Source: Flectonema sp. DT1601 (lineage: Eukaryota). Taken from it: DNA of 64,000 nt. This document shows positions 1 through 64,000 of the stretch, in pieces (position 1 is the stretch's first letter; every line of letters begins with the position of its first letter). The DNA is taken from positions 930,001-994,000 of the forward strand of contig OZ025805.1 of the NCBI GenBank assembly GCA_964019425.1. Direction: 5' to 3'. The notes under the pieces were generated by a model. It was not told where the DNA came from. It made no database searches and saw only the letters and a program-made list of their open reading frames with translations. The position numbers and the translations under genes were made by a program.

Positions 1-2
1 GT

Positions 3-6987: not shown

Positions 6988-9900
6988 ATGATTTATTCAA
7001 TCGCTGTTATCCTCACATTTGCTCTTTCTCAAAGGCCGTGTGATTCGTACGGGAACCTGAGAAGCTGCAGAAGAGCAGTGTGTCCTGATCTTCGTACTCA
7101 ACAATGTACTTGGATTAGAACTACGAGGGAGTGTAAATGTGTGAAACCTTCTTGTGATGACTTCTCGACTCCAACTACTTGTCACACATCTAATTGCCCT
7201 GACCAGGATGATCGTCAATGCATCTGGATTAATAACGGATGTACTTGCAACACTGATCCGAGAACCTGTTCAGAAATCTCAACTCAAGCTTCTTGTCAAA
7301 GCTCTAATTGCCCAGACCAGGATGATCGTCAATGCATCTGGATTAATAACGGATGTACTTGCAACACTGCTCCAAGAACCTGTTCCGAAATTTCAACTCG
7401 TGCAACTTGTCAGACATCACATTGCCCAGACCAGGATGATCGTCAATGCATCTGGATTAATAACGGATGTACTTGCAACACTGCTCCAAGAACCTGTTCC
7501 GAAATTTCAACTCGTGCAACTTGTCAGACATCTCATTGCCCAGACCAGGATGATCGTCAATGCATCTGGATTAATAACGGATGTACTTGCAACACTGATC
7601 CGAGAACCTGTTCAGAAATTTCGACTCGTGCAGCTTGTCAGACATCTCATTGCCCAGATCAGGATGATCGTCAATGCATCTGGATTAATAACGGATGTAC
7701 TTGCAACACTGATCCAAGAACCTGTTCCGAAATTTCAACTCGTGCAACTTGTCAGACATCTCATTGCCCAGACCAGGATGATCGTCAATGCATCTGGATT
7801 AATAACGGATGTACTTGCAACACTGATCCAAGAACCTGTTCCGAAATTTTAACTCGTGCAACTTGTCAGACATCTCATTGCCCAGACCAGGATGATCGTC
7901 AATGCATCTGGATTAATAACGGATGTACTTGCAACACTGCTCCAAGAACCTGTTCCGAAATTTCAACTCGTGCAACTTGTCAGACATCTCATTGCCCAGA
8001 CCAGGATGATCGTCAATGCATCTGGATTAATAACGGATGTACTTGCAACACTGATCCAAGAACCTGTTCCGAAATTTCAACTCGTGCAACTTGTCAGACA
8101 TCTCATTGCCCAGACCAGGATGATCGTCAATGCATCTGGATTAATAACGGATGTACTTGCAACACTGATCCAAGAACCTGTTCCGAAATTTCAACTCGTG
8201 CAACTTGTCAGACATCTCATTGCCCAGACCAGGATGATCGTCAATGCATCTGGATTAATAACGGATGTACTTGCAACACTGCTCCAAGAACCTGTTCCGA
8301 AATTTCAACTCGTGCAACTTGTCAGACATCTCATTGCCCAGACCAGGATGATCGTCAATGCATCTGGATTAATAACGGATGTACTTGCAACACTGATCCA
8401 AGAACCTGTTCCGAAATTTCAACTCGTGCAACTTGTCAGACATCTCATTGCCCAGACCAGGATGATCGTCAATGCATCTGGATTAATAACGGATGTACTT
8501 GCAACACTGCTCCAAGAACCTGTTCCGAAATTTCAACTCGTGCAACTTGTCAGACATCTCATTGCCCAGACCAGGATGATCGTCAATGCATCTGGATTAA
8601 TAACGGATGTACTTGCAACACTGATCCAAGAACCTGTTCCGAAATTTCAACTCGTGCAACTTGTCAGACATCACATTGCCCAGACCAGGATGATCGTCAA
8701 TGCATCTGGATTAATAACGGATGTACTTGCAACACTGCTCCAAGAACCTGTTCCGAAATTTCAACTCGTGCAACTTGTCAGACATCTCATTGCCCAGACC
8801 AGGATGATCGTCAATGCATCTGGATTAATAACGGATGTACTTGCAACACTGATCCAAGAACCTGTTCCGAAATTTCAACTCGTGCAACTTGTCAGACATC
8901 TCATTGCCCAGACCAGGATGATCGTCAATGCATCTGGATTAATAACGGATGTACTTGCAACACTGCTCCAAGAACCTGTTCCGAAATTTCAACTCGTGCA
9001 ACTTGTCAGACATCTCATTGCCCAGACCAGGATGATCGTCAATGCATCTGGATTAATAACGGATGTACTTGCAACACTGCTCCAAGAACCTGTTCCGAAA
9101 TTTCAACTCGTGCAACTTGTCAGACATCTCATTGCCCAGACCAGGATGATCGTCAATGCATCTGGATTAATAACGGATGTACTTGCAACACTGATCCAAG
9201 AACCTGTTCCGAAATTTCAACTCGTGCAACTTGTCAGACATCACATTGCCCAGACCAGGATGATCGTCAATGCATCTGGATTAATAACGGATGTACTTGC
9301 AACACTGCTCCAAGAACCTGTTCCGAAATTTCAACTCGTGCAACTTGTCAGACATCTCATTGCCCAGACCAGGATGATCGTCAATGCATCTGGATTAATA
9401 ACGGATGTACTTGCAACACTGATCCAAGAACCTGTTCCGAAATTTCAACTCGTGCAACTTGTCAGACATCTCATTGCCCAGACCAGGATGATCGTCAATG
9501 CATCTGGATTAATAACGGATGTACTTGCAACACTGATCCAAGAACCTGTTCCGAAATTTCAACTCGTGTAACTTGTCAGACATCTCATTGCCCAGACCAG
9601 GATGATCGTCAATGCATCTGGATTCATAACGGATGTACTTGCAACACTGATCCAAGAACCTGTTCCGAAATTTCAACTCGTGCAACTTGTCAGACATCTC
9701 ATTGCCCAGACCAGGATGATCGTCAATGCATCTGGATTAATAACGGATGTACTTGCAACACTGATCCAAGAACCTGTTCCGAAATTTCAACTCGTGCAAC
9801 TTGTCAGACATCTCATTGCCCAGACCAGGATGATCGTCAATGCATCTGGATTAATAACGGATGTACTTGCAACACTGATCCAAGAACCTGTTCCGAAATT

Positions 9901-12900
9901 TCAACTCGTGCAACTTGTCAGACATCTCATTGCCCAGACCAGGATGATCGTCAATGCATCTGGATTAATAACGGATGTACTTGCAACACTGATCCAAGAA
10001 CCTGTTCCGAAATTTCAACTCGTGTAACTTGTCAGACATCTCATTGCCCAGACCAGGATGATCGTCAATGCATCTGGATTCATAACGGATGTACTTGCAA
10101 CACTGATCCAAGAACCTGTTCCGAAATTTCAACTCGTGCAACTTGTCAGACATCTCATTGCCCAGACCAGGATGATCGTCAATGCATCTGGATTAATAAC
10201 GGATGTACTTGCAACACTGATCCAAGAACTTGTTCCGAAATTTCAACTCGTGCAACTTGTCAGACATTTCATTGCCCAGACCAGGATGATCGTCAATGCA
10301 TCTGGATTAATAACGGATGTACTTGCAACACTGATCCAAGAACCTGTTCCGATATCTCAACTCAAGCTCTTTGTCAGAGCTCTAATTGCCCAGACCAGGA
10401 TGATCGTCAATGCATCTGGATTAATAACGGATGTACTTGCAACACTGATCCAAGAACCTGTTCCGAAATTTCAACTCGTGTAACTTGTCAGACATCTCAT
10501 TGCCCAGACCAGGATGATCGTCAATGCATCTGGATTCATAACGGATGTACTTGCAACACTGATCCAAGAACCTGTTCCGAAATTTCAACTCGTGCAACTT
10601 GTCAGACATCTCATTGCCCAGACCAGGATGATCGTCAATGCATCTGGATTAATAACGGATGTACTTGCAACACTGATCCAAGAACTTGTTCCGAAATTTC
10701 AACTCGTGCAACTTGTCAGACATTTCATTGCCCAGACCAGGATGATCGTCAATGCATCTGGATTAATAACGGATGTACTTGCAACACTGATCCAAGAACC
10801 TGTTCCGATATCTCAACTCAAGCTCTTTGTCAGAGCTCTAATTGCCCAGACCAGGATGATCGTCAATGCATCTGGATTAATAACGGATGTACTTGCAACA
10901 CTGATCCAAGAACCTGTTCCGATATCTCAGCTCAAGCTGTTTGTCAGAGCTCTAATTGCCCAGACCAGGATGATCGTCAATGCATCTGGATTAATAACGG
11001 ATGTACTTGCAACACTGATCCGAGAACCTGTTCCGAAATTTCGACTCGTGCAGCTTGTCAGACATCACATTGCCCAGACCAGGATGATCGTCAATGCATC
11101 TGGATTAATAACGGATGTACTTGCAACACTGATCCAAGAACCTGTTCCGAAATTTCAACTCGTGCAACTTGTCAGAAATCTCATTGCCCAGACCAGGATG
11201 ATCGTCAATGCATCTGGATTAATAACGGATGTACTTGCAACACTGATCCAAGAACCTGTTCGGAAATTTCGACTCGTGCATCTTGTCAGACATCTAATTG
11301 CCCAGACCAGGATGATCGTCAATGCATCTGGATTAATAACGGATGTACTTGCAACACTGATCCAAGAACCTGTTCCGATATCTCAACTCAAGCTGTTTGT
11401 CTGAGCTCTAATTGCCCAGACCAGGATGATCGTCAATGCATCTGGATTAATAACGGATGTACTTGCAACACTGATCCAAGAACCTGTTCCGATATCTCAA
11501 CTCAAGCTGTTTGTCAGAGCTCTAATTGCCCAGACCAGGATGATCGTCAATGCATCTGGATTAATAACGGATGTACTTGCAACACTGATCCGAGAACCTG
11601 TTCCGAAATTTCGACTCGTGCAGCTTGTCAGACATCACATTGCCCAGACCAGGATGATCGTCAATGCATCTGGATTAATAACGGATGTACTTGCAACACT
11701 GATCCAAGAACCTGTTCTGAAATTTCAACTCGTGCAACTTGTCAGACATCTCATTGCCCAGACCAAGATGATCGTCCATGCATCTGGATTAATAACGGAT
11801 GTACTTGCAACACTGCTCCAAGAACCTGTTCCGAAATTTCAACTCGTGCAACTTGTCAGACATCTCATTGCCCAGACCAGGATGATCGTCAATGCATCTG
11901 GATTAATAACGGATGTACTTGCAACACTGATCCAAGAACCTGTTCTGAAATTTCAACTCGTGCAACTTGTCAGACATCTCATTGCCCAGACCAGGATGAT
12001 CGTCAATGCATCTGGATTAATAACGGATGTACTTGCAACACTGATCCAAGAACCTGTTCTGAAATTTCAACTCGTGCAACTTGTCAGACATCTCATTGCC
12101 CAGACCAAGATGATCGTCCATGCATCTGGATTAATAACGGATGTACTTGCAACACTGCTCCAAGAACCTGTTCCGAAATTTCAACTCGTGCAACTTGTCA
12201 GACATCTCATTGCCCAGACCAGGATGATCGTCAATGCATCTGGATTAATAACGGATGTACTTGCAACACTGATCCAAGAACCTGTTCCGATATCTCAACT
12301 CAAGCTCTTTGTCAGAGCTCTAATTGCCCAGACCAGGATGATCGTCAATGCATCTGGATTAATAACGGATGTACTTGCAACACTGATCCAAGAACCTGTT
12401 CCGATATCTCAGCTCAAGCTGTTTGTCAGAGCTCTAATTGCCCAGACCAGGATGATCGTCAATGCATCTGGATTAATAACGGATGTACTTGCAACACTGA
12501 TCCGAGAACCTGTTCCGAAATTTCGACTCGTGCAGCTTGTCAGACATCACATTGCCCAGACCAGGATGATCGTCAATGCATCTGGATTAATAACGGATGT
12601 ACTTGCAACACTGATCCAAGAACCTGTTCTGAAATTTCAACTCGTGCAACTTGTCAGACATCTCATTGCCCAGACCAAGATGATCGTCAATGCATCTGGA
12701 TTAATAACGGATGTACTTGCAACACTGCTCCAAGAACCTGTTCCGAAATTTCAACTCGTGCAACTTGTCAGACATCTCATTGCCCAGACCAGGATGATCG
12801 TCAATGCATCTGGATTAATAACGGATGTACTTGCAACACTGATCCGAGAACCTGTTCCGAAATTTCGACTCGTGCAGCTTGTCAGACATCACATTGCCCA

Positions 12901-15900
12901 GACCAGGATGATCGTCAATGCATCTGGATTAATAACGGATGTACTTGCAACACTGATCCAAGAACCTGTTCCGAAATTTCAACTCGTGCAACTTGTCAGA
13001 AATCTCATTGCCCAGACCAGGATGATCGTCAATGCATCTGGATTAATAACGGATGTACTTGCAACACTGATCCGAGAACCTGTTCCGAAATTTCGACTCG
13101 TGCAGCTTGTCAGACATCACATTGCCCAGACCAGGATGATCGTCAATGCATCTGGATTAATAACGGATGTACTTGCAACACTGATCCAAGAACCTGTTCG
13201 GAAATTTCGACTCGTGCATCTTGTCAGACATCTAATTGCCCAGACCAGGATGATCGTCAATGCATCTGGATTAATAACGGATGTACTTGCAACACTGATC
13301 CAAGAACCTGTTCCGATATCTCAACTCAAGCTGTTTGTCAGAGCTCTAATTGCCCAGACCAGGATGATCGTCAATGCATCTGGATTAATAACGGATGTAC
13401 TTGCAACACTGATCCAAGAACCTGTTCCGATATCTCAACTCAAGCTGTTTGTCAGAGCTCTAATTGCCCAGACCAGGATGATCGTCAATGCATCTGGATT
13501 AATAACGGATGTACTTGCAACACTGATCCGAGAACCTGTTCCGAAATTTCGACTCGTGCAGCTTGTCAGACATCACATTGCCCAGACCAGGATGATCGTC
13601 AATGCATCTGGATTAATAACGGATGTACTTGCAACACTGATCCAAGAACCTGTTCTGAAATTTCAACTCGTGCAACTTGTCAGACATCTCATTGCCCAGA
13701 CCAAGATGATCGTCAATGCATCTGGATTAATAACGGATGTACTTGCAACACTGCACCAAGAACCTGTTCCGAAATTTCAACTCGTGCAACTTGTCAGACA
13801 TCTCATTGCCCAGACCAGGATGATCGTCAATGCATCTGGATTAATAACGGATGTACTTGCAACACTGATCCAAGAACCTGTTCCGAAATTTCAACTCGTG
13901 CAACTTGTCAGACATCTCATTGCCCAGACCAGGATGATCGTCAATGCATCTGGATTAATAACGGATGTACTTGCAACACTGATCCAAGAACCTGTTCCGA
14001 TATCTCAACTCAAGCTCTTTGTCAGAGCTCTAATTGCCCAGACCAGGATGATCGTCAATGCATCTGGATTAATAACGGATGTACTTGCAACACTGATCCA
14101 AGAACCTGTTCCGATATCTCAACTCAAGCTGTTTGTCAGAGCTCTAATTGCCCAGACCAGGATGATCGTCAATGCATCTGGATTAATAACGGATGTACTT
14201 GCAACACTGATCCGAGAACCTGTTCCGAAATTTCGACTCGTGCAGCTTGTCAGACATCACATTGCCCAGACCAGGATGATCGTCAATGCATCTGGATTAA
14301 TAACGGATGTACTTGCAACACTGATCCAAGAACCTGTTCTGAAATTTCAACTCGTGCAACTTGTCAGACATCTCATTGCCCAGACCAAGATGATCGTCAA
14401 TGCATCTGGATTAATAACGGATGTACTTGCAACACTGCACCAAGAACCTGTTCCGAAATTTCAACTCGTGCAACTTGTCAGACATCTCATTGCCCAGACC
14501 AGGATGATCGTCAATGCATCTGGATTAATAACGGATGTACTTGCAACACTGATCCGAGAACCTGTTCCGAAATTTCGACTCGTGCAGCTTGTCAGACATC
14601 ACATTGCCCAGACCAGGATGATCGTCAATGCATCTGGATTAATAACGGATGTACTTGCAACACTGATCCAAGAACCTGTTCCGAAATTTCAACTCGTGCA
14701 ACTTGTCAGAAATCTCATTGCCCAGACCAGGATGATCGTCAATGCATCTGGATTAATAACGGATGTACTTGCAACACTGATCCAAGAACCTGTTCGGAAA
14801 TTTCGACTCGTGCATCTTGTCAGACATCTAATTGCCCAGACCAGGATGATCGTCAATGCATCTGGATTAATAACGGATGTACTTGCAACACTGATCCAAG
14901 AACCTGTTCCGATATCTCAACTCAAGCTGTTTGTCAGAGCTCTAATTGCCCAGACCAGGATGATCGTCAATGCATCTGGATTAATAACGGATGTACTTGC
15001 AACACTGATCCAAGAACCTGTTCCGATATCTCAACTCAAGCTGTTTGTCTGAGCTCTAATTGCCCAGACCAGGATGATCGTCAATGCATCTGGATTAATA
15101 ACGGATGTACTTGCAACACTGATCCAAGAACCTGTTCCGATATCTCAACTCAAGCTGTTTGTCTGAGCTCTAATTGCCCAGACCAGGATGATCGTCAATG
15201 CATCTGGATTAATAACGGATGTACTTGCAACACTGATCCAAGAACCTGTTCCGATATCTCAACTCAAGCTGTTTGTCAGAGCTCTAATTGCCCAGACCAG
15301 GATGATCGTCAATGCATCTGGATTAATAACGGATGTACTTGCAACACTGATCCGAGAACCTGTTCCGAAATTTCGACTCGTGCAGCTTGTCAGACATCAC
15401 ATTGCCCAGACCAGGATGATCGTCAATGCATCTGGATTAATAACGGATGTACTTGCAACACTGATCCAAGAACCTGTTCTGAAATTTCAACTCGTGCAAC
15501 TTGTCAGACATCTCATTGCCCAGACCAAGATGATCGTCAATGCATCTGGATTAATAACGGATGTACTTGCAACACTGCTCCAAGAACCTGTTCCGAAATT
15601 TCAACTCGTGCAACTTGTCAGACATCTCATTGCCCAGACCAGGATGATCGTCAATGCATCTGGATTAATAACGGATGTACTTGCAACACTGATCCGAGAA
15701 CCTGTTCCGAAATTTCAACTCGTGCAACTTGTCAGACATCTCATTGCCCAGACCAGGATGATCGTCAATGCATCTGGATTAATAACGGATGTACTTGCAA
15801 CACTGATCCAAGAACCTGTTCCGAAATTTCAACTCGTGCAACTTGTCAGACATCTCATTGCCCAGACCAGGATGATCGTCAATGCATCTGGATTAATAAC

Positions 15901-17064
15901 GGATGTACTTGCAACACTGATCCAAGAACCTGTTCCGATATCTCAACTCAAGCTCTTTGTCAGAGCTCTAATTGCCCAGACCAGGATGATCGTCAATGCA
16001 TCTGGATTAATAACGGATGTACTTGCAACACTGATCCAAGAACCTGTTCCGATATCTCAGCTCAAGCTGTTTGTCAGAGCTCTAATTGCCCAGACCAGGA
16101 TGATCGTCAATGCATCTGGATTAATAACGGATGTACTTGCAACACTGATCCGAGAACCTGTTCCGAAATTTCGACTCGTGCAGCTTGTCAGACATCACAT
16201 TGCCCAGACCAGGATGATCGTCAATGCATCTGGATTAATAACGGATGTACTTGCAACACTGATCCAAGAACCTGTTCTGAAATTTCAACTCGTGCAACTT
16301 GTCAGACATCTCATTGCCCAGACCAAGATGATCGTCAATGCATCTGGATTAATAACGGATGTACTTGCAACACTGCTCCAAGAACCTGTTCCGAAATTTC
16401 AACTCGTGCAACTTGTCAGACATCTCATTGCCCAGACCAGGATGATCGTCAATGCATCTGGATTAATAACGGATGTACTTGCAACACTGATCCGAGAACC
16501 TGTTCCGAAATTTCGACTCGTGCAGCTTGTCAGACATCACATTGCCCAGACCAGGATGATCGTCAATGCATCTGGATTAATAACGGATGTACTTGCAACA
16601 CTGATCCAAGAACCTGTTCCGAAATTTCAACTCGTGCAACTTGTCAGAAATCTCATTGCCCAGACCAGGATGATCGTCAATGCATCTGGATTAATAACGG
16701 ATGTACTTGCAACACTGATCCAAGAACCTGTTCGGAAATTTCGACTCGTGCATCTTGTCAGACATCTAATTGCCCAGACCAGGATGATCGTCAATGCATC
16801 TGGATTAATAACGGATGTACTTGCAACACTGATCCAAGAACCTGTTCCGATATCTCAACTCAAGCTGTTTGTCTGAGCTCTAATTGCCCAGACCAGGATG
16901 ATCGTCAATGCATCTGGATTAATAACGGATGTACTTGCAACACTGATCCAAGAACCTGTTCCGATATCTCAACTCAAGCTGTTTGTCAGAGCTCTAATTG
17001 CCCAGACCAGGATGATCGTCAGTGTGTCTGGAGTGAAGTTGGGTGTACTTGCCGATTGATTTAG
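6988..17064 (+). CDS. Giant secreted Cys-rich tandem-repeat protein, copy 3 (3358 aa, about 87 units)
   Basis: Same signal peptide and terminal sequence as copy 2. The frame is open for 10 kb and Cys/Trp positions are invariant among variant units. Confidence 0.88.
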   Translation: MIYSIAVILTFALSQRPCDSYGNLRSCRRAVCPDLRTQQCTWIRTTRECKCVKPSCDDFSTPTTCHTSNCPDQDDRQCIWINNGCTCNTDPRTCSEISTQASCQSSNCPDQDDRQCIWINNGCTCNTAPRTCSEISTRATCQTSHCPDQDDRQCIWINNGCTCNTAPRTCSEISTRATCQTSHCPDQDDRQCIWINNGCTCNTDPRTCSEISTRAACQTSHCPDQDDRQCIWINNGCTCNTDPRTCSEISTRATCQTSHCPDQDDRQCIWINNGCTCNTDPRTCSEILTRATCQTSHCPDQDDRQCIWINNGCTCNTAPRTCSEISTRATCQTSHCPDQDDRQCIWINNGCTCNTDPRTCSEISTRATCQTSHCPDQDDRQCIWINNGCTCNTDPRTCSEISTRATCQTSHCPDQDDRQCIWINNGCTCNTAPRTCSEISTRATCQTSHCPDQDDRQCIWINNGCTCNTDPRTCSEISTRATCQTSHCPDQDDRQCIWINNGCTCNTAPRTCSEISTRATCQTSHCPDQDDRQCIWINNGCTCNTDPRTCSEISTRATCQTSHCPDQDDRQCIWINNGCTCNTAPRTCSEISTRATCQTSHCPDQDDRQCIWINNGCTCNTDPRTCSEISTRATCQTSHCPDQDDRQCIWINNGCTCNTAPRTCSEISTRATCQTSHCPDQDDRQCIWINNGCTCNTAPRTCSEISTRATCQTSHCPDQDDRQCIWINNGCTCNTDPRTCSEISTRATCQTSHCPDQDDRQCIWINNGCTCNTAPRTCSEISTRATCQTSHCPDQDDRQCIWINNGCTCNTDPRTCSEISTRATCQTSHCPDQDDRQCIWINNGCTCNTDPRTCSEISTRVTCQTSHCPDQDDRQCIWIHNGCTCNTDPRTCSEISTRATCQTSHCPDQDDRQCIWINNGCTCNTDPRTCSEISTRATCQTSHCPDQDDRQCIWINNGCTCNTDPRTCSEISTRATCQTSHCPDQDDRQCIWINNGCTCNTDPRTCSEISTRVTCQTSHCPDQDDRQCIWIHNGCTCNTDPRTCSEISTRATCQTSHCPDQDDRQCIWINNGCTCNTDPRTCSEISTRATCQTFHCPDQDDRQCIWINNGCTCNTDPRTCSDISTQALCQSSNCPDQDDRQCIWINNGCTCNTDPRTCSEISTRVTCQTSHCPDQDDRQCIWIHNGCTCNTDPRTCSEISTRATCQTSHCPDQDDRQCIWINNGCTCNTDPRTCSEISTRATCQTFHCPDQDDRQCIWINNGCTCNTDPRTCSDISTQALCQSSNCPDQDDRQCIWINNGCTCNTDPRTCSDISAQAVCQSSNCPDQDDRQCIWINNGCTCNTDPRTCSEISTRAACQTSHCPDQDDRQCIWINNGCTCNTDPRTCSEISTRATCQKSHCPDQDDRQCIWINNGCTCNTDPRTCSEISTRASCQTSNCPDQDDRQCIWINNGCTCNTDPRTCSDISTQAVCLSSNCPDQDDRQCIWINNGCTCNTDPRTCSDISTQAVCQSSNCPDQDDRQCIWINNGCTCNTDPRTCSEISTRAACQTSHCPDQDDRQCIWINNGCTCNTDPRTCSEISTRATCQTSHCPDQDDRPCIWINNGCTCNTAPRTCSEISTRATCQTSHCPDQDDRQCIWINNGCTCNTDPRTCSEISTRATCQTSHCPDQDDRQCIWINNGCTCNTDPRTCSEISTRATCQTSHCPDQDDRPCIWINNGCTCNTAPRTCSEISTRATCQTSHCPDQDDRQCIWINNGCTCNTDPRTCSDISTQALCQSSNCPDQDDRQCIWINNGCTCNTDPRTCSDISAQAVCQSSNCPDQDDRQCIWINNGCTCNTDPRTCSEISTRAACQTSHCPDQDDRQCIWINNGCTCNTDPRTCSEISTRATCQTSHCPDQDDRQCIWINNGCTCNTAPRTCSEISTRATCQTSHCPDQDDRQCIWINNGCTCNTDPRTCSEISTRAACQTSHCPDQDDRQCIWINNGCTCNTDPRTCSEISTRATCQKSHCPDQDDRQCIWINNGCTCNTDPRTCSEISTRAACQTSHCPDQDDRQCIWINNGCTCNTDPRTCSEISTRASCQTSNCPDQDDRQCIWINNGCTCNTDPRTCSDISTQAVCQSSNCPDQDDRQCIWINNGCTCNTDPRTCSDISTQAVCQSSNCPDQDDRQCIWINNGCTCNTDPRTCSEISTRAACQTSHCPDQDDRQCIWINNGCTCNTDPRTCSEISTRATCQTSHCPDQDDRQCIWINNGCTCNTAPRTCSEISTRATCQTSHCPDQDDRQCIWINNGCTCNTDPRTCSEISTRATCQTSHCPDQDDRQCIWINNGCTCNTDPRTCSDISTQALCQSSNCPDQDDRQCIWINNGCTCNTDPRTCSDISTQAVCQSSNCPDQDDRQCIWINNGCTCNTDPRTCSEISTRAACQTSHCPDQDDRQCIWINNGCTCNTDPRTCSEISTRATCQTSHCPDQDDRQCIWINNGCTCNTAPRTCSEISTRATCQTSHCPDQDDRQCIWINNGCTCNTDPRTCSEISTRAACQTSHCPDQDDRQCIWINNGCTCNTDPRTCSEISTRATCQKSHCPDQDDRQCIWINNGCTCNTDPRTCSEISTRASCQTSNCPDQDDRQCIWINNGCTCNTDPRTCSDISTQAVCQSSNCPDQDDRQCIWINNGCTCNTDPRTCSDISTQAVCLSSNCPDQDDRQCIWINNGCTCNTDPRTCSDISTQAVCLSSNCPDQDDRQCIWINNGCTCNTDPRTCSDISTQAVCQSSNCPDQDDRQCIWINNGCTCNTDPRTCSEISTRAACQTSHCPDQDDRQCIWINNGCTCNTDPRTCSEISTRATCQTSHCPDQDDRQCIWINNGCTCNTAPRTCSEISTRATCQTSHCPDQDDRQCIWINNGCTCNTDPRTCSEISTRATCQTSHCPDQDDRQCIWINNGCTCNTDPRTCSEISTRATCQTSHCPDQDDRQCIWINNGCTCNTDPRTCSDISTQALCQSSNCPDQDDRQCIWINNGCTCNTDPRTCSDISAQAVCQSSNCPDQDDRQCIWINNGCTCNTDPRTCSEISTRAACQTSHCPDQDDRQCIWINNGCTCNTDPRTCSEISTRATCQTSHCPDQDDRQCIWINNGCTCNTAPRTCSEISTRATCQTSHCPDQDDRQCIWINNGCTCNTDPRTCSEISTRAACQTSHCPDQDDRQCIWINNGCTCNTDPRTCSEISTRATCQKSHCPDQDDRQCIWINNGCTCNTDPRTCSEISTRASCQTSNCPDQDDRQCIWINNGCTCNTDPRTCSDISTQAVCLSSNCPDQDDRQCIWINNGCTCNTDPRTCSDISTQAVCQSSNCPDQDDRQCVWSEVGCTCRLI

Positions 17065-32951: not shown

Positions 32952-34127
32952 ATGCAACTCTCGATCGCGTTTCCAGACACAGGATTTCCCGACGTTATTT
33001 TCATAGCTACGGGAGATTCGCTCGTGAAGGCTGCATTGCAGATTGCAGCCGATGAGTGGGGTACCGATACTGACTTTCTTGAGCTTTCTCTCGCAGGAGC
33101 ACGGCTTTCAGCAGGTGATCGATTAGTGTCGTACGGAGTGGAGGACGGCTCACTGTTGGATGCATCGGTGGTGCGCTTGTTTGGATTGGAATGGTTCACA
33201 GATGCTGCAAAGAGAGCGAAGGCATTCCTACGAGGAGAACGGGATCAGGACGGGTTTTTGTGCCTTGATACTCCCACATTCGCTGTGGATGGCTGTCTTC
33301 AGTTTAGTAACAGTGAGTGGTTTTCGGATGATGTTACGAACATCTCATTCAGCAACTCTGAACCCTCAGTCACGACCGTTTCGGATGATTTCTTATCCTC
33401 ATCTCGTAAGGTTAAAAAGGTCAGTCTTCCTGGTCTTCAATACGTCACATCTGTTGGTAATGATTTCCTCAGAAATTGCTGTTCACTTACATCCGTAGAC
33501 TTGTCAAGCCTCAGCAATGTTTCAGCTGTTGGAAATGATTTTCTCTCTTATTGTGTATCCCTCACATCCGTAGACTTGTCATGCCTGAGCAATGTTTCAG
33601 CTGTTGGAACTTATTTTCTCGCTTCTTGTTCATCCCTCACGTCCCTGGACTTGTCATGCTTCAGCAATGTTTCAACTGTTGAAACTTGTTTGCTAAGTCA
33701 TTGTTCGTCCCTCACATTAGTGGACTTATCGAGTCTCAGCAATGTTTCAGCTGTTAGAAATTGTTTTCTAAGTCGCTGTTCATCCCTCACATCTCTGGAC
33801 TTGTCATGCCTCAGCAATGTTTCAGTTATTGGAAGTTATTTTCTAAGTCATTGTTCGTCCCTCACGTCCCTGGACTTGTCAGGTCTCAGCAATGTTTCAA
33901 CTGTTGGAAGTTATTTTCTAAGTCATTGTTCATCCCTCACCTCCCTGGACTTATCGAGTTTCAGTAATGTTTTAATGATTGAAGTGCATTTTCTGAATTA
34001 TTGTACATCTCTAACGTCTCTGGACTTGATCCTCATGGATGTGAAATGTGTTGGAAACAGTTTCCTCAAAGGTTGTTCATCTATTAACAGAGACGAACTG
34101 CATACGAGCATAAGGAACTTTAAATGA
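32952..34127 (+). CDS. Ubiquitin-like domain plus 25-aa leucine-rich repeat (BspA-like) protein, copy 1
   Basis: N-terminal UBL-like LELSLAGARLSAGDRLVSYGVEDGS, then repeats CSSLTSLDLSxLSNVSxVGxxFLxx. Confidence 0.85.
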   Translation: MQLSIAFPDTGFPDVIFIATGDSLVKAALQIAADEWGTDTDFLELSLAGARLSAGDRLVSYGVEDGSLLDASVVRLFGLEWFTDAAKRAKAFLRGERDQDGFLCLDTPTFAVDGCLQFSNSEWFSDDVTNISFSNSEPSVTTVSDDFLSSSRKVKKVSLPGLQYVTSVGNDFLRNCCSLTSVDLSSLSNVSAVGNDFLSYCVSLTSVDLSCLSNVSAVGTYFLASCSSLTSLDLSCFSNVSTVETCLLSHCSSLTLVDLSSLSNVSAVRNCFLSRCSSLTSLDLSCLSNVSVIGSYFLSHCSSLTSLDLSGLSNVSTVGSYFLSHCSSLTSLDLSSFSNVLMIEVHFLNYCTSLTSLDLILMDVKCVGNSFLKGCSSINRDELHTSIRNFK

Positions 34128-51968: not shown

Positions 51969-53049
51969 TGACAGTTTGAGTTATTGAGTGAACTTTTACA
52001 GGTTCAAATCAAGTGAATTAAGCAGCCTCTCTGTGTGCTAAGGTAAACGCTATTCCATATGTTATTTTTTTTTGTTTGTTTTTTTTTGTGATTTAAATCA
52101 CCCAGCTTACGCTATGTATTTCTTTATGTATCAATTTGAATGTGTTTTTTGATAAGCTTTTTCAAGCCACGTCAGCATACGTTTTTGCTTTTTCTTAATA
52201 TTATTTTTTTTACACCACCTTGAGTGAGTCTCTTAAGGTGTTATTGTTGGTTTCGGTTTACATTTTTTTTTTTTTTTTTTATTATTCAGGTTTTTACCAT
52301 GGTGAGTGTGAATACCTACCAGGCAAGCCTTAGAAAGTAAAACATCCAGTTGGTGGTTTGAAGCACTTTTTTCTTTATGAAATCTTATTTTTTTTTCCTT
52401 TTTATATTCGTTTGCAAATAATTTAAAAAGCTATGACGGGCTTCAGGTTACAACACGGTTGTAGACTTTACGAAATCGAACATACATTCCCCCGGAATCT
52501 CCATATTCGACAGCACTGGGATTTTATTGATGCCAACTGTTGAGCCTTTTTACGTGGCAACTTGTTTTAGATGGTTTCTTGTTTTGGTTTTTGCCAGTTT
52601 CAAGTTACCTCGTACCTTTTTTTTTTTTTTTTTTGAAAAAATTGCCTAAGTGTGTCTTGCTTTTCTATTTATTAGCACGTTATCCTTTACTTTAAATTGA
52701 TTCCAGATGCGAACAAAAACAAAATTATTTATCCCATCAAACCAAAATTTTTTTTTTCATTAAAGTCTCTGTTTCTACAGATGATTTTTTTTCTTTTTTT
52801 TTTTTTTTTTTTTTGAGCTTGTTGTTGTTTTCGTTCTCTTTCTTCTGCCCGCCTTTTCCCCGATGGTTCGACTGATTTATTTATAAAAAAAACTACTTCA
52901 TTTTTATAACTCATCCTTATAATATCAGTCTACATTCGAGTCAGAGAAGTATCGGAATACGCACTGGTCAGGGATGCCTGATTTTATGTATTTTCCACAG
53001 GTAGCAATTCCCCCTCCCCGGCGAAAATAAAATAAAATAAAATAAGGAA

Positions 53050-56782: not shown

Positions 56783-57325
56783 CTGCTAATAATGACAATT
56801 ATCAGAATAGCTTTTCCCCCTCTTTTTTTTTTTTTAATTTTTTTTTTTTATATTCTTTTTTTTAGCGATTAGTAAAAGTGTCTTGAAATCGCATAAAAAA
56901 AACCCTAAAATATCTCATGAGAGGGTTGGTTAATTCCAAACAGAAGTTTAATGAAACACAAACCGGTTTCAATACTTAACAATGCAGCCTAGATTCGACA
57001 GGCAATGTCCTACATGAAAAGATAATTACAACTACTGAATGATTAAAGCAAGGATGAGGCAGATCAATACTCGGTTTCATTCTTTCAGGAATCTGAAATG
57101 AGCTGTGATGTGTCTGATTTTTTGTTTTTTTTAGAGCGAAACCTAATTATCACTTTTTCCTTAACAGCGAAGATGACATTATCAGAACTCCCCTCAGTGG
57201 GCGTTAATTTCAATAAATTAGAAATAAATTCTGCAAAAAAAAAGGAAATCTGTTTAGAAGATATTTATTTTGCACGTTAATCTAATCATACTCCACTCCA
57301 AGCTATTTATATCAGGCGAGGTAAA

Positions 57326-58351
57326 ATGCAACTCTCGATCGCGTTCCCAGACACAGGATTTCCCGACGTTATTTTCACAGCTTCTGGAGATTCGCTCGTG
57401 AAGGATGCATTGCAGATTGCAGCCGATGAGTGGGGTACCGATACTGACTTTCTTGAGCTTTCTCTCGCAGGAGCACGGCTTTCGGCAGGTGATCGATTAG
57501 TGTCGTACGGAGTGGAGGACGGCTCACTGTTGGATGCATCGGTGGTGCGCTTGTTTGGATTGGAATGGTTCACAGATGCTGCAAAGAGAGCGAAGGCATT
57601 CCTACGAGGAGAACGGGATCAGGATGGGTTTTTCTGCCTTGATACTCCCACATTCGCTGTGGATGGCTGTCTTCAGTTTAGTAACAGTGAGTGGTACTCG
57701 GATGATGTTACGAACATCTCATTCAGCAACTCTGAACCCTCAGTCACGACCGTTTCGGATGATTTCTTATCCTCATCTCGTAAGGTTAAAAAGGTCAGTC
57801 TGCCTGGTCTTCAATACGTCACATCTGTTGGTAATGATTTCCTCAGAAATTGCTATTCACTTACATCCGTAGACTTGTCAAGCCTCAGCAATGTTTCAGC
57901 TGTTGGAAATGATTTTCTCTCTTCTTGTGCATCCCTCACATCCGTAGACTTGTCATGCCTGAGCAATGTTTCAGCTGTTGGAACTTATTTTCTCGCTTCT
58001 TGTTCATCCCTCACATCTCTGGACTTGTCATGCCTCAGCAATGTTTCAGTTATTGGAAGTTGCTTTCTAAGTCATTGTTCGTCCCTCACGTCCCTGGACT
58101 TGTCAGGTCTCAGCAATGTTTCAACTGTTGGAAGTTATTTTCTAAGTAGTTGTATATCCCTCACCTCCCTGGACTTATCGTGTCTCAGTAATGTTTTAAT
58201 GATTGAAGGGTATTTTCTGAATTATTGTACATCTCTAACGTCCCTGGACTTGACCCTCATGGATGTGAAATGTGTTGGAAACAGTTTCCTCAAAGGTTGT
58301 TCATCTATTAACAGAGACGAACTGCATACGAGCATAAGGAACTTTAAATGA
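57326..58351 (+). CDS. Ubiquitin-like domain plus LRR protein, copy 2 (two LRR units shorter)
   Basis: Near-identical to 32952-34127 but 50 aa shorter. Flanks are also duplicated (about 57143-58439 vs 32785-34215). Confidence 0.85.
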   Translation: MQLSIAFPDTGFPDVIFTASGDSLVKDALQIAADEWGTDTDFLELSLAGARLSAGDRLVSYGVEDGSLLDASVVRLFGLEWFTDAAKRAKAFLRGERDQDGFFCLDTPTFAVDGCLQFSNSEWYSDDVTNISFSNSEPSVTTVSDDFLSSSRKVKKVSLPGLQYVTSVGNDFLRNCYSLTSVDLSSLSNVSAVGNDFLSSCASLTSVDLSCLSNVSAVGTYFLASCSSLTSLDLSCLSNVSVIGSCFLSHCSSLTSLDLSGLSNVSTVGSYFLSSCISLTSLDLSCLSNVLMIEGYFLNYCTSLTSLDLTLMDVKCVGNSFLKGCSSINRDELHTSIRNFK

Positions 58352-58893
58352 CACCAATCAATCAATATAACCAAACTGGTTAATATCAGAACAAGGTAAG
58401 TCTCATTGATTACTTCTCACATATTTGATGAGTTGTAACCGTTTTAGTGTTCTACAGTGTTTAATGAAACAGAAAAAATAATTTTTTTTTTAATAATATG
58501 AAGTATACTTCATTTTTATGTTTACCTTCGCACTTTTATATGAAAGGAAATGTAAATAATGTTTTTCTCCTTTTTTTTTTCTTTTTTCTCTGGTTGCGTC
58601 TCTGAAACTAAGCCAACCCAACTACTTACTTTTGGATTCGATAAATCACAGCGTGCGAAGAAATTAAAAAAAAAAAAACGTTTTGTGTGTACGTAAAAAG
58701 TTTCTCTTGATTTGTGACTAGCAACGCCAAGCCCTGTGCACATTATACTTCGCCCCCCCCTCAGCATTTTTTTCAAAGAATTGTTGATTTTAAGCAAGTA
58801 ATTTGTAGGTGAAACCTACACTCTGCCGTATTACATTATACCCTGGTTTTGGTTTCCCAGGGCTCACGATTAATTCAAAATTGAATAACTCGA

Positions 58894-58956
58894 TTCCGTA
58901 CTGCACTGAATGACAACACGGAAAAAGAGACATGTATGCAAATAAGTTAGAAACAT
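58894..58956 (+). ncRNA. Variant or degenerate permuted hammerhead ribozyme, module 1
   Basis: UUCCGU-ac-UGCA-CUGAAUGA-cAAC-ACGGAA..AUGU-A^UGCA-aauaa-GUUa-GAAA-CAU. Same element order as module 2; the core has one extra nt and stem II is weak. Confidence 0.6.
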
Positions 58957-59015
58957 TGATTATAATGTAAAGTATTTACGTCAATCGCAGAGTGTATACT
59001 ACACTAACTTTACCT

Positions 59016-59623
59016 TTAGTCACTGTATCTCAGAACTAATGTTAAATTATCGTTATGTTGTTTATGATACAAAACATTTGTATTTTACGTACAAACTCGA
59101 ACAGTTAACCCCCCCTCAGGATTTATAATGATTCATGTCTAATTTGTTGCGTGTTAGCCTTGATTTATTTATCCAAGTCCCCCCTCAGGAACTTTTTTTT
59201 TTATTTATGAACATGAAACACAAAGTAACTACATTCCAGTCCTGCAAACTGGAATGACTCAGTCTCAACATTTGACTGACTTACTTCTACACCATACTGA
59301 TGAGAGAGAATAGAGGTAAGAGGTATATGGATTACTCTCGAAACCTATAGTTACTTTAATATGCTAAGTTGCGCATCACCCTTAGTCACTGTATTTAAAA
59401 CTAATGTTAAATTATCTTTATGTTTTTATGATACAACACAGTTGTAATTTTTACAAAATCGAACATACATCCCCCCTCAGGAACCGAACAAGATTAAAGG
59501 ATCAGTTATCCCCTTAGTCACTGTATCTAAAATTAATGTTAATTATTCCTGGCTTTTGGCTTCCTAGGCTTCGTAAATAAATAAAATAAATAATTATCGT
59601 ACGTTACATCCCCCCCCCCCTCA
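59016..59623 (+). repeat. Three ~100-nt leader repeats (59016-59120, 59382-59481, 59514-59623)
   Basis: Each starts ttagtcactgtat..taatgttaa(a)ttat and ends in C6-11-TCA(G). Copies 1 and 2 align throughout; copy 3 diverges in the middle. Confidence 0.85.
59280..59346 (+). ncRNA. Hammerhead ribozyme with non-circularly permuted topology, module 2; predicted cleavage after A59325
   Basis: CUGAUGA (59297-59303), stem II GAGAG/CUCUC, GAAA (59340-59343), stem I CCAUA/UAUGG, stem III ACCU/AGGU and GUA triplet at 59323-59325. Confidence 0.85.
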
Positions 59624-59631
59624 CCCCCAAG

Positions 59632-62600
59632 ATGTTATTATCGAGAGGTGCTAGATATAGACTCTTTGAGGATCCGAAAACTGTCACGGAGGAAGTAATG
59701 TACGCTATAGATGAATACATCATGCATTACTTCCCAGATGAGAAATACGAACCTCTATGTATTTTTTTAAAAAAAGCGGCAAAAAATCAAATCGGAAAGC
59801 TACCGCAGATGGATGTTATTGATGAATTCAAACAAGTACAGAAGGAACTGAAGGAAATTAAAAAACATTTGATTTTTACCAGAATCGACAAAACGACACA
59901 CGATCTGGCAGTATGTTGTAAGAAATACTACAACACAAAACTAAACGAGCACATCGGTAACAGAATTGTGTACGCAGAGGTTCCGAAAGATCAGATAAAT
60001 CCAACGATGAAAAGGATCGAAGACATCAACAAGAAACATGGTTTCAGAAATACGGAAAATTTGCCATATTTATATGGAAATCCGAAGATGCATAAAGACC
60101 CTCCGAAGTTTAGATTCATAGCTGGAACTTCGAACAAAACACTGGATGTCAAATACATCAACTCTAAGGTAATGCCTGCGCCCTTCACAGCCACAACAGA
60201 CATGTCAAAGGAAATGTCTGGGATACTTAAGACTTTCATGGAAATAGTTAAAAAAGCTGAAAAAGTGGAATACGAAACAACGAATATAAGAAAGTATTTT
60301 ATAATTCAGAATGTAGATGAAGTTGCACAGTACATCAAAAGCAACTACTCAACTCTCCAACAAATGAAGGTAAAGACATATGATTTCTCAGATATGTACA
60401 CGAACCTCCCCCATGATAAGATTAAAAAAGTTATCAACGAATTAATCAGCAAGTACATGGACGGGCAGATAATGGTTAGAGACAAAAGAAGTGGAATTGG
60501 TAAAGACTTTTACCTTGACAAAAGCTACGATAAAGATGTTCAAGTAGCATACGAAGAGAGCAAAGTTAAAGAACTACTCAGCACGATTCTATCTAATGCT
60601 TACATTAAGAATGGAGAACTTATGCTCAAACAAAGCCATGGTATACCGATGGGTTCTCAATGCTCACCACATATTGCGAACTTATACTGCTTTGGCATTG
60701 AAAAACAATGGGTGGAAAACGTCATTTCACAGAAAGGTATTGGGGCAGCGATAAATAACAAAATCATATTCAGATACATTGATGATTTTTTAATTTTCAG
60801 CCACAATGACCCAAGCCCACCACCGAGTGAGATGTATAAAATGTCATATACAGATACATCAATGGGCAACAACGATGTAGTATTCCTTGGGATGAGAATC
60901 CGGTTGGAAGAAAGGCCGAGAGGACACCCGTTCGTACGACTTTCAATATGGGATAAAGAAAATCTGTTTAATTTCCAACCCATTAAGTATACCAGTTCGG
61001 AATCCAACGCACCGAAAAGCCTAGGACCAGGTATTCTAAAAGGTGCCATGTACAGAGCCGCTACTAATATCAATAACGATTTCGACTTATACCTTGAAAT
61101 TGAGAAAGTGCTATACCGTCTGAGAAGTCGCGGATACTCGAAAAACAGTCTGTTCCCCCAATATAAAGACTTTGTACTGGGTACATACTGGGATTTCCCA
61201 AAACAAAGGGAAAGTCTTCATCATCATTTCTTTGAAATCAATCGGAAATATGACAACGGAAGACCAGTATCGAAAGAAAAACAGACAATCCAACAACATT
61301 ATAAAGTCAATGGAAGGGATGACATTTATAATATGCTGTTGGACAAGAGAATTGGATATGCGAAATTAAGGAGGAATGACAACACATTGGTGACATCATT
61401 TAAAATTGCCAGTCAAGCGATTATTAAAAACAAGAAGGAATGTCAGCAATGCAAAGCTATAATCTCTGACGACACTGAATCACTGGTCAATGATATCAAC
61501 ATTAAATATCACACTGGAATATTCAAAACAGCAAAATTCTACAAGGAATTTAAAGAGATATTGCCTATCAATGTCAGTATCCTTTCATACAAAAAGGGTA
61601 TAACAACTCGAGTAGTAGTCAACAAAGATAACAATCACGAATGTCACATGTTGATCGGATGTACGGAAGGTGGATTTTTCTTTCCAATTACAGCAAGATA
61701 CACGGAAAAGGAAATTCAAAGTCAGCTACTCGAAAAGAAGGATCCAGAAAAATCCGATATCGCTGACAACACGTCGAAAGACTTGAAAGTAGTACAAAAG
61801 GAGCAGAAGTCAGAAGAGTCTGGAAAAACTGAAGTACCAAACGATGATTATTGGTCCACCTTCATTGATAATAAATTCCCTATTACGATGCACACGCAAC
61901 CAGCAGAAGGACTTCGTAGTGGGGAATGTGGCTGGGCAACTGTTAACTTCATAGCAGATCACCTCAAAACTGAAAGAATCAGAATATCGAAGATGTTTAA
62001 GATTCAATTCCGACTCGCAGAGCAAGAGCTTAAGTTAATTGGAGAGAACTTGATGTTCTCATTTAACCCAGATGGTTGGTTTCATCAGATAGTTATTTAT
62101 GAAACAATAAGAATATATCTGGGACTAGAAGTAACACATGTGACAACCCATGAACAGCTGAAAACAATCACAGTAGGTCCAACAGAACAAGAAACTATTG
62201 TCATTCCATACATCATAGTGTCACGTAGAGCAGCCTACACACATTACATCGTCTTTATTGATATAAATTCTAAATACAAGGGATTTGATATAATCAATCC
62301 AACTCCAGATTGTAATGGGATAGAAGATATCATGACGAAGTATCCGTTGAAGGAATACGAATACCACGTTGTAATGAAAACAACGAAAGATATTCCTCCA
62401 ATAGACTTGTCTGCACTGGCAATAACAGAGTCACCAGCAAAGGATAATTCCACAACAAAAACTACAGAAGTGGAAATTAAAAAATTCACGGACGAGGAGG
62501 ATGTAACAGATCTTGAGACAATGATTTCGGCAATCGAAAAAGCGGACAAAATGAAGCCCAAATCGACACCGGGAAAAGTCAATAAGATAGAGATAAGGGC

Positions 62601-64000
62601 CGTATCACCACCAAAGATATGCCAGGATAATATACCGACCCTGTACATATCGCCGATGGTGAAGATACCACCATTACCAGTACTACTATCACCAGTGTTA
62701 CCAAGACCATCAATAATTCCAATGACAATACCAATAACGATACCGAAGATAATAAAAATGGAACCTTCGGTAATGCAAAAAATTATATCGCTACCATCAA
62801 ATAGTTTTCAGAAGACGCTAGTCACTGTAAATAATGCACTTACGGTAGCCCCACCAGCAATCCCGACATTGATGCCAGCAACGATTTCAAAGGTATCACA
62901 ATTGGCACCGCCGACTGTACTTCAAAAGAAGACACAAGTCATTGCAAATGATGAACTCACACAGGTCCCGCCGATAATTCCAACAATGATACCAACACCA
63001 ATTACAAATTTATCACAATCGACACCGTCAATTGTACTTCAAAAGAATACACAAGTCAGTGCGAGTGATGCACTTACACAGGCCCCGCCGATAATTCCAA
63101 CGCTGATGCCAGCAAGGATTTCAAAAATATCACAATTAGCACCGCCGACTGTAATTCAGAAGAAGACACAAGTTATTGCAAATGAGACACCTACAATGGC
63201 CCCACCTGCAATCCCAACGTTGATGCCAGCAACGATCTCAAAGGTATCACAATTGGAACCTCCAACTGTACATCAAAGTGTGATTCAATCTATGAAAACG
63301 ATACAATTACCGATTGTATCACCATTGGATCTGGATCATAATGATGTGGATATGATCGATATGCCGTCACCAGCAACAGTACAACTGGATACGGACACTG
63401 ACATGGTAATGGAAACTATGTCACCAGAGACGCAGGAATCACCGGAGCATAGATATGCTGGCGTAATGACTCCATCCAAAGACAGGATGGAGTCACCACC
63501 AATAACTCCGATTAAGATTAAGACTCCACTGAAAATAAAGACGCCTCTGAAGATCGAAACTCCGACTAAAATAATTCCACAAACCCAACAAGCATGTTGG
63601 GATGGAAAGAACCTCGAATTAATACGAAGTTTGTCAAAAGAAAGACAGTTGGAGAAAATAGTCACCACATACAGACTAAGATCAACTACACCACAAACAG
63701 TAGCCAGGAAGATGGAAACACCACCTACTGTAAGCAGTAAAGCCACGAATTCCGGAACAACAATACCGATTACACCACAAAAGGTATCAAGAGTACTAAC
63801 ATACACAGATACAGAGAATATCGGTAAAACTTGCAAATATTGCAATAAATCCTGGAAGTCATTTATTGACCATATCAATAAATGTGGAATATTCAGAGCA
63901 TCAAAAGAATATCCAACATATGTTGATGAAGATGATAACACTTCATTTACGGTCACTGAATACAAAACGGATCCTCGAAATAGTATTGTAACTGTTACAA
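59632..64000 (+). CDS. Penelope-like reverse transcriptase polyprotein (RT, Josephin-like protease, Pro/Thr repeats, CCHC knuckle); 3'-incomplete
   Basis: Manual translation finds no stop to 64000. Motifs: LLSRGARYR, IDK (59884), LPYLYGNPKMHKDPPKFRFIAG (60061), TYDFSDMYTNLPH (60376), QSHGIPMGSQCSPHIANLY (60631), FRYIDD (60769-60786), FLG, WDK and RGY. In-frame stop upstream at 59587-59589. Confidence 0.95.
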   Translation, partial: MLLSRGARYRLFEDPKTVTEEVMYAIDEYIMHYFPDEKYEPLCIFLKKAAKNQIGKLPQMDVIDEFKQVQKELKEIKKHLIFTRIDKTTHDLAVCCKKYYNTKLNEHIGNRIVYAEVPKDQINPTMKRIEDINKKHGFRNTENLPYLYGNPKMHKDPPKFRFIAGTSNKTLDVKYINSKVMPAPFTATTDMSKEMSGILKTFMEIVKKAEKVEYETTNIRKYFIIQNVDEVAQYIKSNYSTLQQMKVKTYDFSDMYTNLPHDKIKKVINELISKYMDGQIMVRDKRSGIGKDFYLDKSYDKDVQVAYEESKVKELLSTILSNAYIKNGELMLKQSHGIPMGSQCSPHIANLYCFGIEKQWVENVISQKGIGAAINNKIIFRYIDDFLIFSHNDPSPPPSEMYKMSYTDTSMGNNDVVFLGMRIRLEERPRGHPFVRLSIWDKENLFNFQPIKYTSSESNAPKSLGPGILKGAMYRAATNINNDFDLYLEIEKVLYRLRSRGYSKNSLFPQYKDFVLGTYWDFPKQRESLHHHFFEINRKYDNGRPVSKEKQTIQQHYKVNGRDDIYNMLLDKRIGYAKLRRNDNTLVTSFKIASQAIIKNKKECQQCKAIISDDTESLVNDINIKYHTGIFKTAKFYKEFKEILPINVSILSYKKGITTRVVVNKDNNHECHMLIGCTEGGFFFPITARYTEKEIQSQLLEKKDPEKSDIADNTSKDLKVVQKEQKSEESGKTEVPNDDYWSTFIDNKFPITMHTQPAEGLRSGECGWATVNFIADHLKTERIRISKMFKIQFRLAEQELKLIGENLMFSFNPDGWFHQIVIYETIRIYLGLEVTHVTTHEQLKTITVGPTEQETIVIPYIIVSRRAAYTHYIVFIDINSKYKGFDIINPTPDCNGIEDIMTKYPLKEYEYHVVMKTTKDIPPIDLSALAITESPAKDNSTTKTTEVEIKKFTDEEDVTDLETMISAIEKADKMKPKSTPGKVNKIEIRAVSPPKICQDNIPTLYISPMVKIPPLPVLLSPVLPRPSIIPMTIPITIPKIIKMEPSVMQKIISLPSNSFQKTLVTVNNALTVAPPAIPTLMPATISKVSQLAPPTVLQKKTQVIANDELTQVPPIIPTMIPTPITNLSQSTPSIVLQKNTQVSASDALTQAPPIIPTLMPARISKISQLAPPTVIQKKTQVIANETPTMAPPAIPTLMPATISKVSQLEPPTVHQSVIQSMKTIQLPIVSPLDLDHNDVDMIDMPSPATVQLDTDTDMVMETMSPETQESPEHRYAGVMTPSKDRMESPPITPIKIKTPLKIKTPLKIETPTKIIPQTQQACWDGKNLELIRSLSKERQLEKIVTTYRLRSTTPQTVARKMETPPTVSSKATNSGTTIPITPQKVSRVLTYTDTENIGKTCKYCNKSWKSFIDHINKCGIFRASKEYPTYVDEDDNTSFTVTEYKTDPRNSIVTVT
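62848..63275 (+). repeat. 117-bp (39-aa) coding tandem repeat, about 3.6 copies
   Basis: APPAIPTLMPATISKVSQLAPPTVLQKKTQVIANDELTQ-like units start at 62848, 62965, 63082 and 63199. Confidence 0.85.

Follow-up and report, generated by a model that had tools for sequence, protein, structure and literature searches.

We consider it likely that the window (the whole 64,000-nucleotide stretch of DNA analyzed here) carries a type-CSG hammerhead ribozyme upstream of a truncated, Chlamys-like Penelope-type reverse transcriptase (RT) open reading frame (ORF), that this RNA would self-cleave after A59325 in monomeric form, and that it lies in the tail of the retroelement as part of a pseudo-LTR. The topology is not new. 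It is the non-circular type-CSG permutation of Eckert et al. (2023), who named six orders of the three hammerhead blocks C, G, and S (PMC10085705). The first-pass annotation of the window had called for a comparison with natural non-circular permutations. What is new in the literature that we searched is the genomic, retroelement setting of a very rare known ribozyme class.

Table 1. Features of the ribozyme, its surroundings, and comparable motifs in related elements (window positions unless a locus is named)
Feature	Position	Strand	Basis or remark
Structured cassette holding the ribozyme; predicted five-way junction (closing helix, hairpins A and B, helix J, stem III)	59222..59357	+	Pairings, fold
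Minimal type-CSG hammerhead, 67 nt	59280..59346	+	Descriptor scan; layout matches published CSG-1/CSG-2 alignment
Closing helix	59222-31/59348-57	+	10 Watson-Crick pairs
Hairpin A	59232-40/59248-56 (span 59232-56)	+	9 pairs
Hairpin B	59259-64/59274-79 (span 59259-79)	+	6 pairs
Helix J, joins stems I and II	59280-89/59311-20 (span 59280..59320)	+	9 Watson-Crick pairs, 1 G-U
Stem I	59292-96/59326-30	+	5 pairs
Core CUGAUGA	59297-303	+	Sequence
Stem II	59304-08/59335-39	+	5 pairs, with G10.1-C11.1
Stem III	59321-23/59344-46	+	3 pairs plus U16.1-A15.1
GAAA	59340-43	+	Sequence
Triplet GUA	59323-25	+	U16.1 = 59324, A17 = 59325
Predicted cut	59325/59326, after A59325	+	By analogy
Block C (stem I strand, CUGAUGA, stem II strand)	59292..59308	+	Sequence
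Block S (stem III strand, U16.1, A17, stem I strand)	59321..59330	+	Sequence
Block G (stem II strand, GAAA, stem III strand)	59335..59346	+	Sequence
Repeat unit 1, about 105 nt, C-run at end	59013..59119	+	84.5% identity to unit 2 over 110 nt
Repeat unit 2, C-run at end, 21 nt after cassette	59379..59482	+	Likely element 3' terminus
Repeat unit 3, diverged	59511..59631	+	C-run 59610-59628 abuts truncated ORF
5'-truncated Chlamys-like Penelope-type RT ORF	59632..63999	+	RVT_1 E 9.8e-8; open 1,456 codons to window end
Split-core locus L001	4280-4420		Relaxed descriptor
Split-core locus L003	3490-3570		Relaxed descriptor
Split-core locus L004	1-150		Relaxed descriptor
Split-core locus L005	4405-4505		Relaxed descriptor
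Split-core locus L009	3825-3925		Relaxed descriptor
Split-core locus L010	5625-5775		Relaxed descriptor
Split-core locus L014	1865-1945		Relaxed descriptor
Split-core locus L015	1525-1695		Relaxed descriptor
Further split-core candidate L013	near 2290-2430		By eye
Further split-core candidate L023	near 3105-3220		By eye
CSG-bearing nematode consensus sequences (File S5)	Naiad_Parc, Naiad-1_Nbra, Naiad-2_Nbra, Naiad-3_Nbra, Naiad_Hcon, Naiad_Hpol		By eye

The ribozyme and its fold

A sequence check placed all 16 strands named in the first-pass annotation at its coordinates and in its order, and coordinates and a descriptor scan agreed on its central claim, a perfect core laid out as C-S-G with the cleaved strand between the two strands of stem II. 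Every core element that type CSG requires is present (CUGAnGA, GAAA, UH, and the pairs G10.1-C11.1 and A15.1-U16.1), and stems I, II, and III consist of 5, 5, and 3(+1) Watson-Crick pairs, respectively. The ribozyme comprises two abutting hairpins, those of helix J and stem III, and complementarity between their loops (stems I and II) rebuilds the standard core. The second half of the core lies 36 nt away from the first. The extra 10-bp helix, the closing helix, and the two accessory hairpins are all as the annotation had described them. All seven helices of the cassette are intact, with one G-U among 49 pairs. In our judgment, the window RNA is very probably hammerhead derived and CSG folded.

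The fold of a 181-nt region has a z score of -3.5, and none of 200 shuffled sequences was as stable. Mean pair probabilities are 0.92 to 0.99 for the closing helix, hairpins A and B, helix J (0.985 over its 10 pairs), and stem III in the nested ensemble of ViennaRNA; stems I and II are loop-loop pseudoknots outside this model, and the fold figures cover the nested part alone. Competing pairs inside both loops are weak in the nested model (about -3.3 kcal/mol).

A descriptor covering all six block orders, run on both strands of the 64-kb window, found one site, in the order C-S-G, and there is no second ribozyme copy in the window. All-Watson-Crick matches of any order (stems I, II, and III of at least 5, 5, and 3 pairs) were absent from both strands of 2,264 dinucleotide shuffles of the window. 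When G-U pairs were allowed, the same shuffles yielded 33 matches over all orders, 3 of which were CSG, in a count that did not require helix J. A circular type I, II, or III reading (CGS, GSC, or SCG) was rejected, in agreement with the annotation: there is no Rfam match and no good partner set within 600 nt, the sole alternative for the window core being a poor one with a 1-bp stem III. The expectation that standard models would miss the ribozyme was borne out by an Rfam scan of positions 57000 to 62000, which returned four chance-level matches and no hammerhead at an E value of ≤5. A pattern built on the window ribozyme had no match in viral contigs.

Type CSG was described from two unique, similar sequences (5 hits) in soil metagenome DNA, with modest covariation and no host assigned; CSG-1 and CSG-2 cleave in vitro where predicted, with rates of 0.004 and 0.026 per min, and the evidence for the type was graded weaker than that for SGC (PMC10085705). 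As far as the published alignment goes, the window RNA has the same block order and the same kind of helix, one arm directly preceding stem I and the other directly following stem II, whereas (i) its helix J has 10 bp rather than about 8, and the helix sequences are unrelated, (ii) its stem III has 3 rather than 4 pairs beyond U16.1-A15.1, (iii) its cleavage triplet is GUA rather than GUC, (iv) its linker between J and stem III is 0 nt, and (v) its five-way junction with the closing helix and hairpins A and B has no counterpart in the 66 alignment columns. The published CSG RNAs have no host assigned to them; that of the window belongs to a nuclear contig of a eukaryote and has a retroelement next to it. 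The search pattern of Eckert et al. allowed a stem II-III linker of ≤10 nt and a stem III of ≥4 pairs (PMC10085705) and would miss the window RNA because of its 12-nt linker and 3-pair stem III. Type-SGC hammerheads (HRIMA-1), 583 predicted sequences of which occur with hairpin ribozymes in metatranscriptome RNAs, differ from the window RNA in their order, S-G-C. Of the RNAs in that study, one GCS candidate alone was stated to come from the genome of a known organism (PMC10085705).

The first-pass annotation held that the order requires a pseudoknot or a dimer. The pseudoknotted order stands; a dimer is probably not required, since single-copy constructs of the published CSG RNAs already cleaved while being transcribed. 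By analogy with them, we think there is a good chance, better than that of the full reading given at the outset, that the window RNA would cleave in vitro as a monomer. Cutting may be slow, because stem III has 3 pairs beyond U16.1-A15.1 versus 4 to 11 in the other CSG examples compared here. The 67-nt size makes the cleavage question testable within a day.

Host, repeat units, and the adjacent reverse transcriptase

The host is a diplonemid: the neighboring NPR2 gene shares 71% identity with a protein of Flectonema neradi, and four of the six NPR2 homologs at an E value of ≤1e-20 carry diplonemid labels. All 27 ORFs of more than 150 codons in the window are on the plus strand, as is the ribozyme; such one-strand gene order is expected of euglenozoan polycistronic clusters.

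The ribozyme lies among three diverged repeat units of about 105 to 120 nt, a C-run ending each, which we infer to be element 3' ends. In two small-share sequencing runs (X1 and X2), compared with positions 58500 to 62000, parts of the flanks are covered, and X1 additionally covers two short ORF pieces without differences; neither run covers the ribozyme core, nor X2 the ORF, so that they are uninformative there. One X2 contig equals 59360-59478 without differences and then continues into other sequence, and several match parts of 58766-59253 and 59360-59478 and diverge near C-runs. If the repeat units are read as introns, each has GT...AG ends; by eye, the 42 nt between units 2 and 3 are unlike the missing RT N terminus under this reading. 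A solo 45-nt piece of a repeat unit (52449-52493; 87% identical, with a C-run end) is found in a host intergenic region.

The RT ORF, which was absent from the first-pass annotation, begins 286 nt downstream of the ribozyme on the same (sense) strand. It has a DKT (DK-x) motif, and its best named relatives are Diplonema papillatum proteins (33 to 36% identity). An RT family 73 to 74% identical to it reaches further upstream through a CxC motif, which places the 5' truncation of the window ORF at about 59629, in a C-run. The window ORF is without the CxC motif and without the N-terminal GIY-YIG region of more distant relatives; full-length ones of the same clade have an N-terminal GIY-YIG without CxxC, plus CxC and DK-x. 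A tblastn search with 23 relatives found no remnants of the missing N terminus or of a C terminus upstream of the ORF. Two fragments from a 140,751-nt contig are 96% and 99% identical to the window ORF, indicating that further copies of the RT family exist. In two truncated relatives (P0265 and P0124), a poly-proline run directly precedes the matched part.

A quick tree of 49 RT rows places the window RT together with the D. papillatum proteins in a clade of 14 rows. This clade is sister to a 12-row clade of mostly metagenomic loci and stands apart from a mostly DKA-type group with a Pinctada protein; two green-algal rows have long branches and an unsure place. Two scans of viral contigs found no relatives of the RT. 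Because this RT tree holds no published Chlamys reference sequences, we use the label Chlamys-like. As far as the description of Naiad and Chlamys elements by Craig et al. (2021) goes, the window RT family resembles them in its DK-x RT, 5' truncation, and C-run junction, Chlamys insertion being reported at (C)n, and its relatives resemble them in the N-terminal GIY-YIG, CxC, and protease-type C-terminal extensions. Their GIY-YIG without CxxC corresponds to the description of Chlamys, whereas Naiads have CxxC (PMC8557442). The main text of that paper contains neither "diplonem" nor "euglen".

Two further features of the ORF may be recorded. Residues 750 to 930 (about 61880-62420), which follow the RT and are kept in the 73% family, form a Cys/His protease-like segment with no Pfam match and weak OTU-like leads (0.79 to 0.82); RT relatives carry UCH or Josephin domains, which suggests that these elements often carry deubiquitinase-type domains. 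Three in-frame 117-bp repeats (62810-63277) give rise to a proline-rich tract.

Rewired hammerheads in related elements

Craig et al. reported that Naiad and most Chlamys elements are without canonical hammerheads and listed eight "HHR_half_core" cases, unexplained, in which the second core half is 35 to 50 nt away (PMC8557442). The reported absence was taken to suggest that the ribozyme may be dispensable or parasitic. In the part of their supplement that we covered, the core (in four spellings) followed by G has at least 29 matches. Complete type-CSG ribozymes with helix J are present in at least six of the eight nematode Naiad consensus tails (Table 1), as read by eye and not computed; line breaks hide some core matches in the file, and one of them splits the sixth CSG. 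The last 600 characters of the Naiad_Ppac and Naiad_Asuum consensus sequences contain no CSG. In the six examples, J has about 9 to 16 pairs and stems I, II, and III have 5 to 6, 4 to 5, and 5 to 11, and the sequences of all four helices differ among the six and from the window RNA. Three of the six belong to the eight half-core cases; the CSG reading offers a direct explanation for some of the Naiad/Chlamys half-core motifs. In the Chlamys consensus file, none of the eight core-motif matches reads as CSG, and two resemble ordinary type I. Together, the window example and the six Naiad tails provide type CSG with hosts, a biological setting, and independent helix sequences, and the window ribozyme would supply what the Naiad/Chlamys group was reported to lack.

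A linker of 0 to 2 nt is seen in four cases, namely, the window RNA, Naiad_Hcon, Naiad_Hpol, and Naiad_Parc. In the first three, J is 7 to 9 pairs longer than stem III, as if J doubled back beside stems II and III; Naiad_Parc is the exception. The varied lengths of J and stem III bear on how their ends join via a very short linker.

Related RT loci were collected from a metagenome scan (32 loci) and from prokaryote genome contigs (1 locus). None of the 33 has a credible CSG or type I to III hammerhead, at least 200 nt being available after the stop of the matched frame in 23 of them, while the other 10 could not show a tail. This counts against CSG being general in this RT subclade. An Rfam gathering scan of 20 of the loci found no ribozyme, and the one match of the three-block descriptor among the first 32, a G-U-rich one inside an ORF, was rejected as poor. 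Split-core hammerheads, in contrast to these forms, take stem II from a separate strand: the order is S-G-C, with stem II supplied by an upstream strand. They were found in eight of the 33 loci (about five independent families), and each is sense oriented and lies outside the RT ORF; over 200 shuffled sets, matches averaged 0.005 per set and never exceeded 1. In L014, one element copy terminates in the motif, and the following ORF of the tandem starts some 740 nt later, the same arrangement of motif and following ORF copy as in the window. An apparent upstream ribozyme copy in L004 is a 127-nt terminal redundancy of the contig and was not counted. The locus from the prokaryote genomes (L033; CALKWN010000094.1) is a eukaryote-type Penelope RT contig with a (CA)n end in a bacterial WWE3 metagenome bin, where it was probably placed by binning contamination; it has no hammerhead match.

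On balance, we lean slightly toward the view that CSG is a regular ribozyme of Penelope-like elements with an N-terminal endonuclease, from diplonemids to nematodes, and that this clade has rewired the hammerhead repeatedly and uses it to free unit-length RNA from read-through transcripts. If this is true, the clade has not lost the hammerhead but has CSG here and in nematode Naiads and split-core forms elsewhere, and unit-length element RNA would here be released from a euglenozoan polycistronic message. The open-licence literature holds one account of type-CSG hammerheads, that of Eckert et al.; in it we found no report of a CSG hammerhead in a eukaryotic genome, of a tie between CSG and Penelope-like elements, or of a ribozyme-bearing Penelope-like element in a diplonemid. 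Among the Naiad/Chlamys ribozyme papers listed since 2021, none concerns permuted ribozymes by title. In the parts available to us, a 2026 retrozyme preprint deals with type I only, and a 2026 NAR paper cites Eckert et al. and adds no more on CSG.

A different conserved structured tail motif occurs in a sister RT family (at about 5890-5990 in L006 and just after the ORF in L007, L016, L019, and L028). There was no Rfam match for twister-sister on L006 at an E value of ≤10. The motif has no hammerhead core but has closing helices, internal hairpins, and compensatory-looking changes, and we take it to resemble the twister-sister ribozyme consensus.

Origin and activity of the window ribozyme

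The cassette is probably part of a Penelope-type tail and, with somewhat less confidence, of the tail of this very element. The element tail with its ribozyme would have been copied in front of the ORF as a pseudo-LTR. Transcription through the same-strand gene cluster of the host would pass the ribozyme, which would fold as a monomer, cut itself after A59325, and so cut the element RNA out of a long precursor; the closing helix may keep the two cut pieces together. A second ribozyme copy in the element's own 3' tail, which lies beyond the window, would give unit-length RNA with 5'-OH and cyclic-phosphate ends, which might be circularized and copied by the element RT into head-to-tail insertions.

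This proposed setting is the same as that described by Cervera and de la Peña (2014) and for an Anolis element, in which a sense-strand hammerhead in the terminal repeat of a Penelope-like element lies upstream of the ORF (PMC4209133, PMC11167929). Those hammerheads in pseudo-LTRs were proposed to cut a precursor into units, possibly circularized, that template tandem insertions (PMC4209133). They are of circular type I, often minimal and dimer or protein dependent, whereas the window RNA has three stems and a knotted order. The Anolis hammerhead, from the one Penelope element tested in vitro, needed a protein there and was dispensable for insertion, and no RNA-seq reads were reported to start at its cut site (PMC11167929); by analogy, this result speaks against the ribozyme being needed by the element.

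Among the alternatives, the one that survives best, though we find it unlikely, is that a real ribozyme belongs to a separate short, non-autonomous, retrozyme-like repeat or to another Penelope family's tail, and that the RT was inserted alongside at a shared C-rich site. It would accommodate the three diverged flanking units with their C-runs, the X2 contigs that match parts of these flanks and then pass into other sequence near C-runs, and the different wiring in the nearest RT relatives with readable tails. It accounts less well for the ribozyme being on the same strand as the ORF and 286 nt from the truncation junction, for partial tandems that form pseudo-LTRs being the usual insertion structure of the clade (PMC8557442), and for the equal layout of L014 within one family.

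It is more doubtful still that the window RNA is a true hammerhead active only as a dimer or with an element protein, block C pairing with the stem III loop of another RNA and multimers being cut. The published CSG RNAs, which share this layout, needed neither a second copy in the construct nor that protein to cleave (PMC10085705), and helix J, with its 0-nt linker, tethers block C beside block S in cis. These points are set against the short stem III, the slow, dimeric action of minimal Penelope hammerheads (PMC4209133), and the protein dependence of the Anolis hammerhead (PMC11167929). The nested co-fold of two RNAs, at -89.9 versus -82.2 kcal/mol for two monomers, also favors a dimer, in a pseudoknot-free model that says little on function.

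We consider it very improbable that the cassette is an inactive or functionless relic, a fold inherited with an old element tail and with no useful cutting rate, for which the short stem III and the weak competing pairs in the loops might speak; the seven intact helices with their single G-U and the 1,456 open codons of the ORF alongside both point to a copy that is young or has been maintained. It is scarcely credible that the ribozyme serves the host by cutting polycistronic pre-mRNA between genes, with no tie to transposition. The shared strand of the 27 ORFs would suit such a role, but this is a single hammerhead in 64 kb that lies in repeat DNA beside an RT, without others in intergenic regions.

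Elsewhere in the window, two paralogous genes (57326-58351 and 32952-34124) have near-identical N termini, the first of them with BspA-type leucine-rich repeats, and the 39 nt downstream of the two are 97% identical. A large coding region built of tandem repeats fills positions 1 to 17061; one of its ORFs has 3,358 codons, and all three plus-strand frames contain long open stretches.
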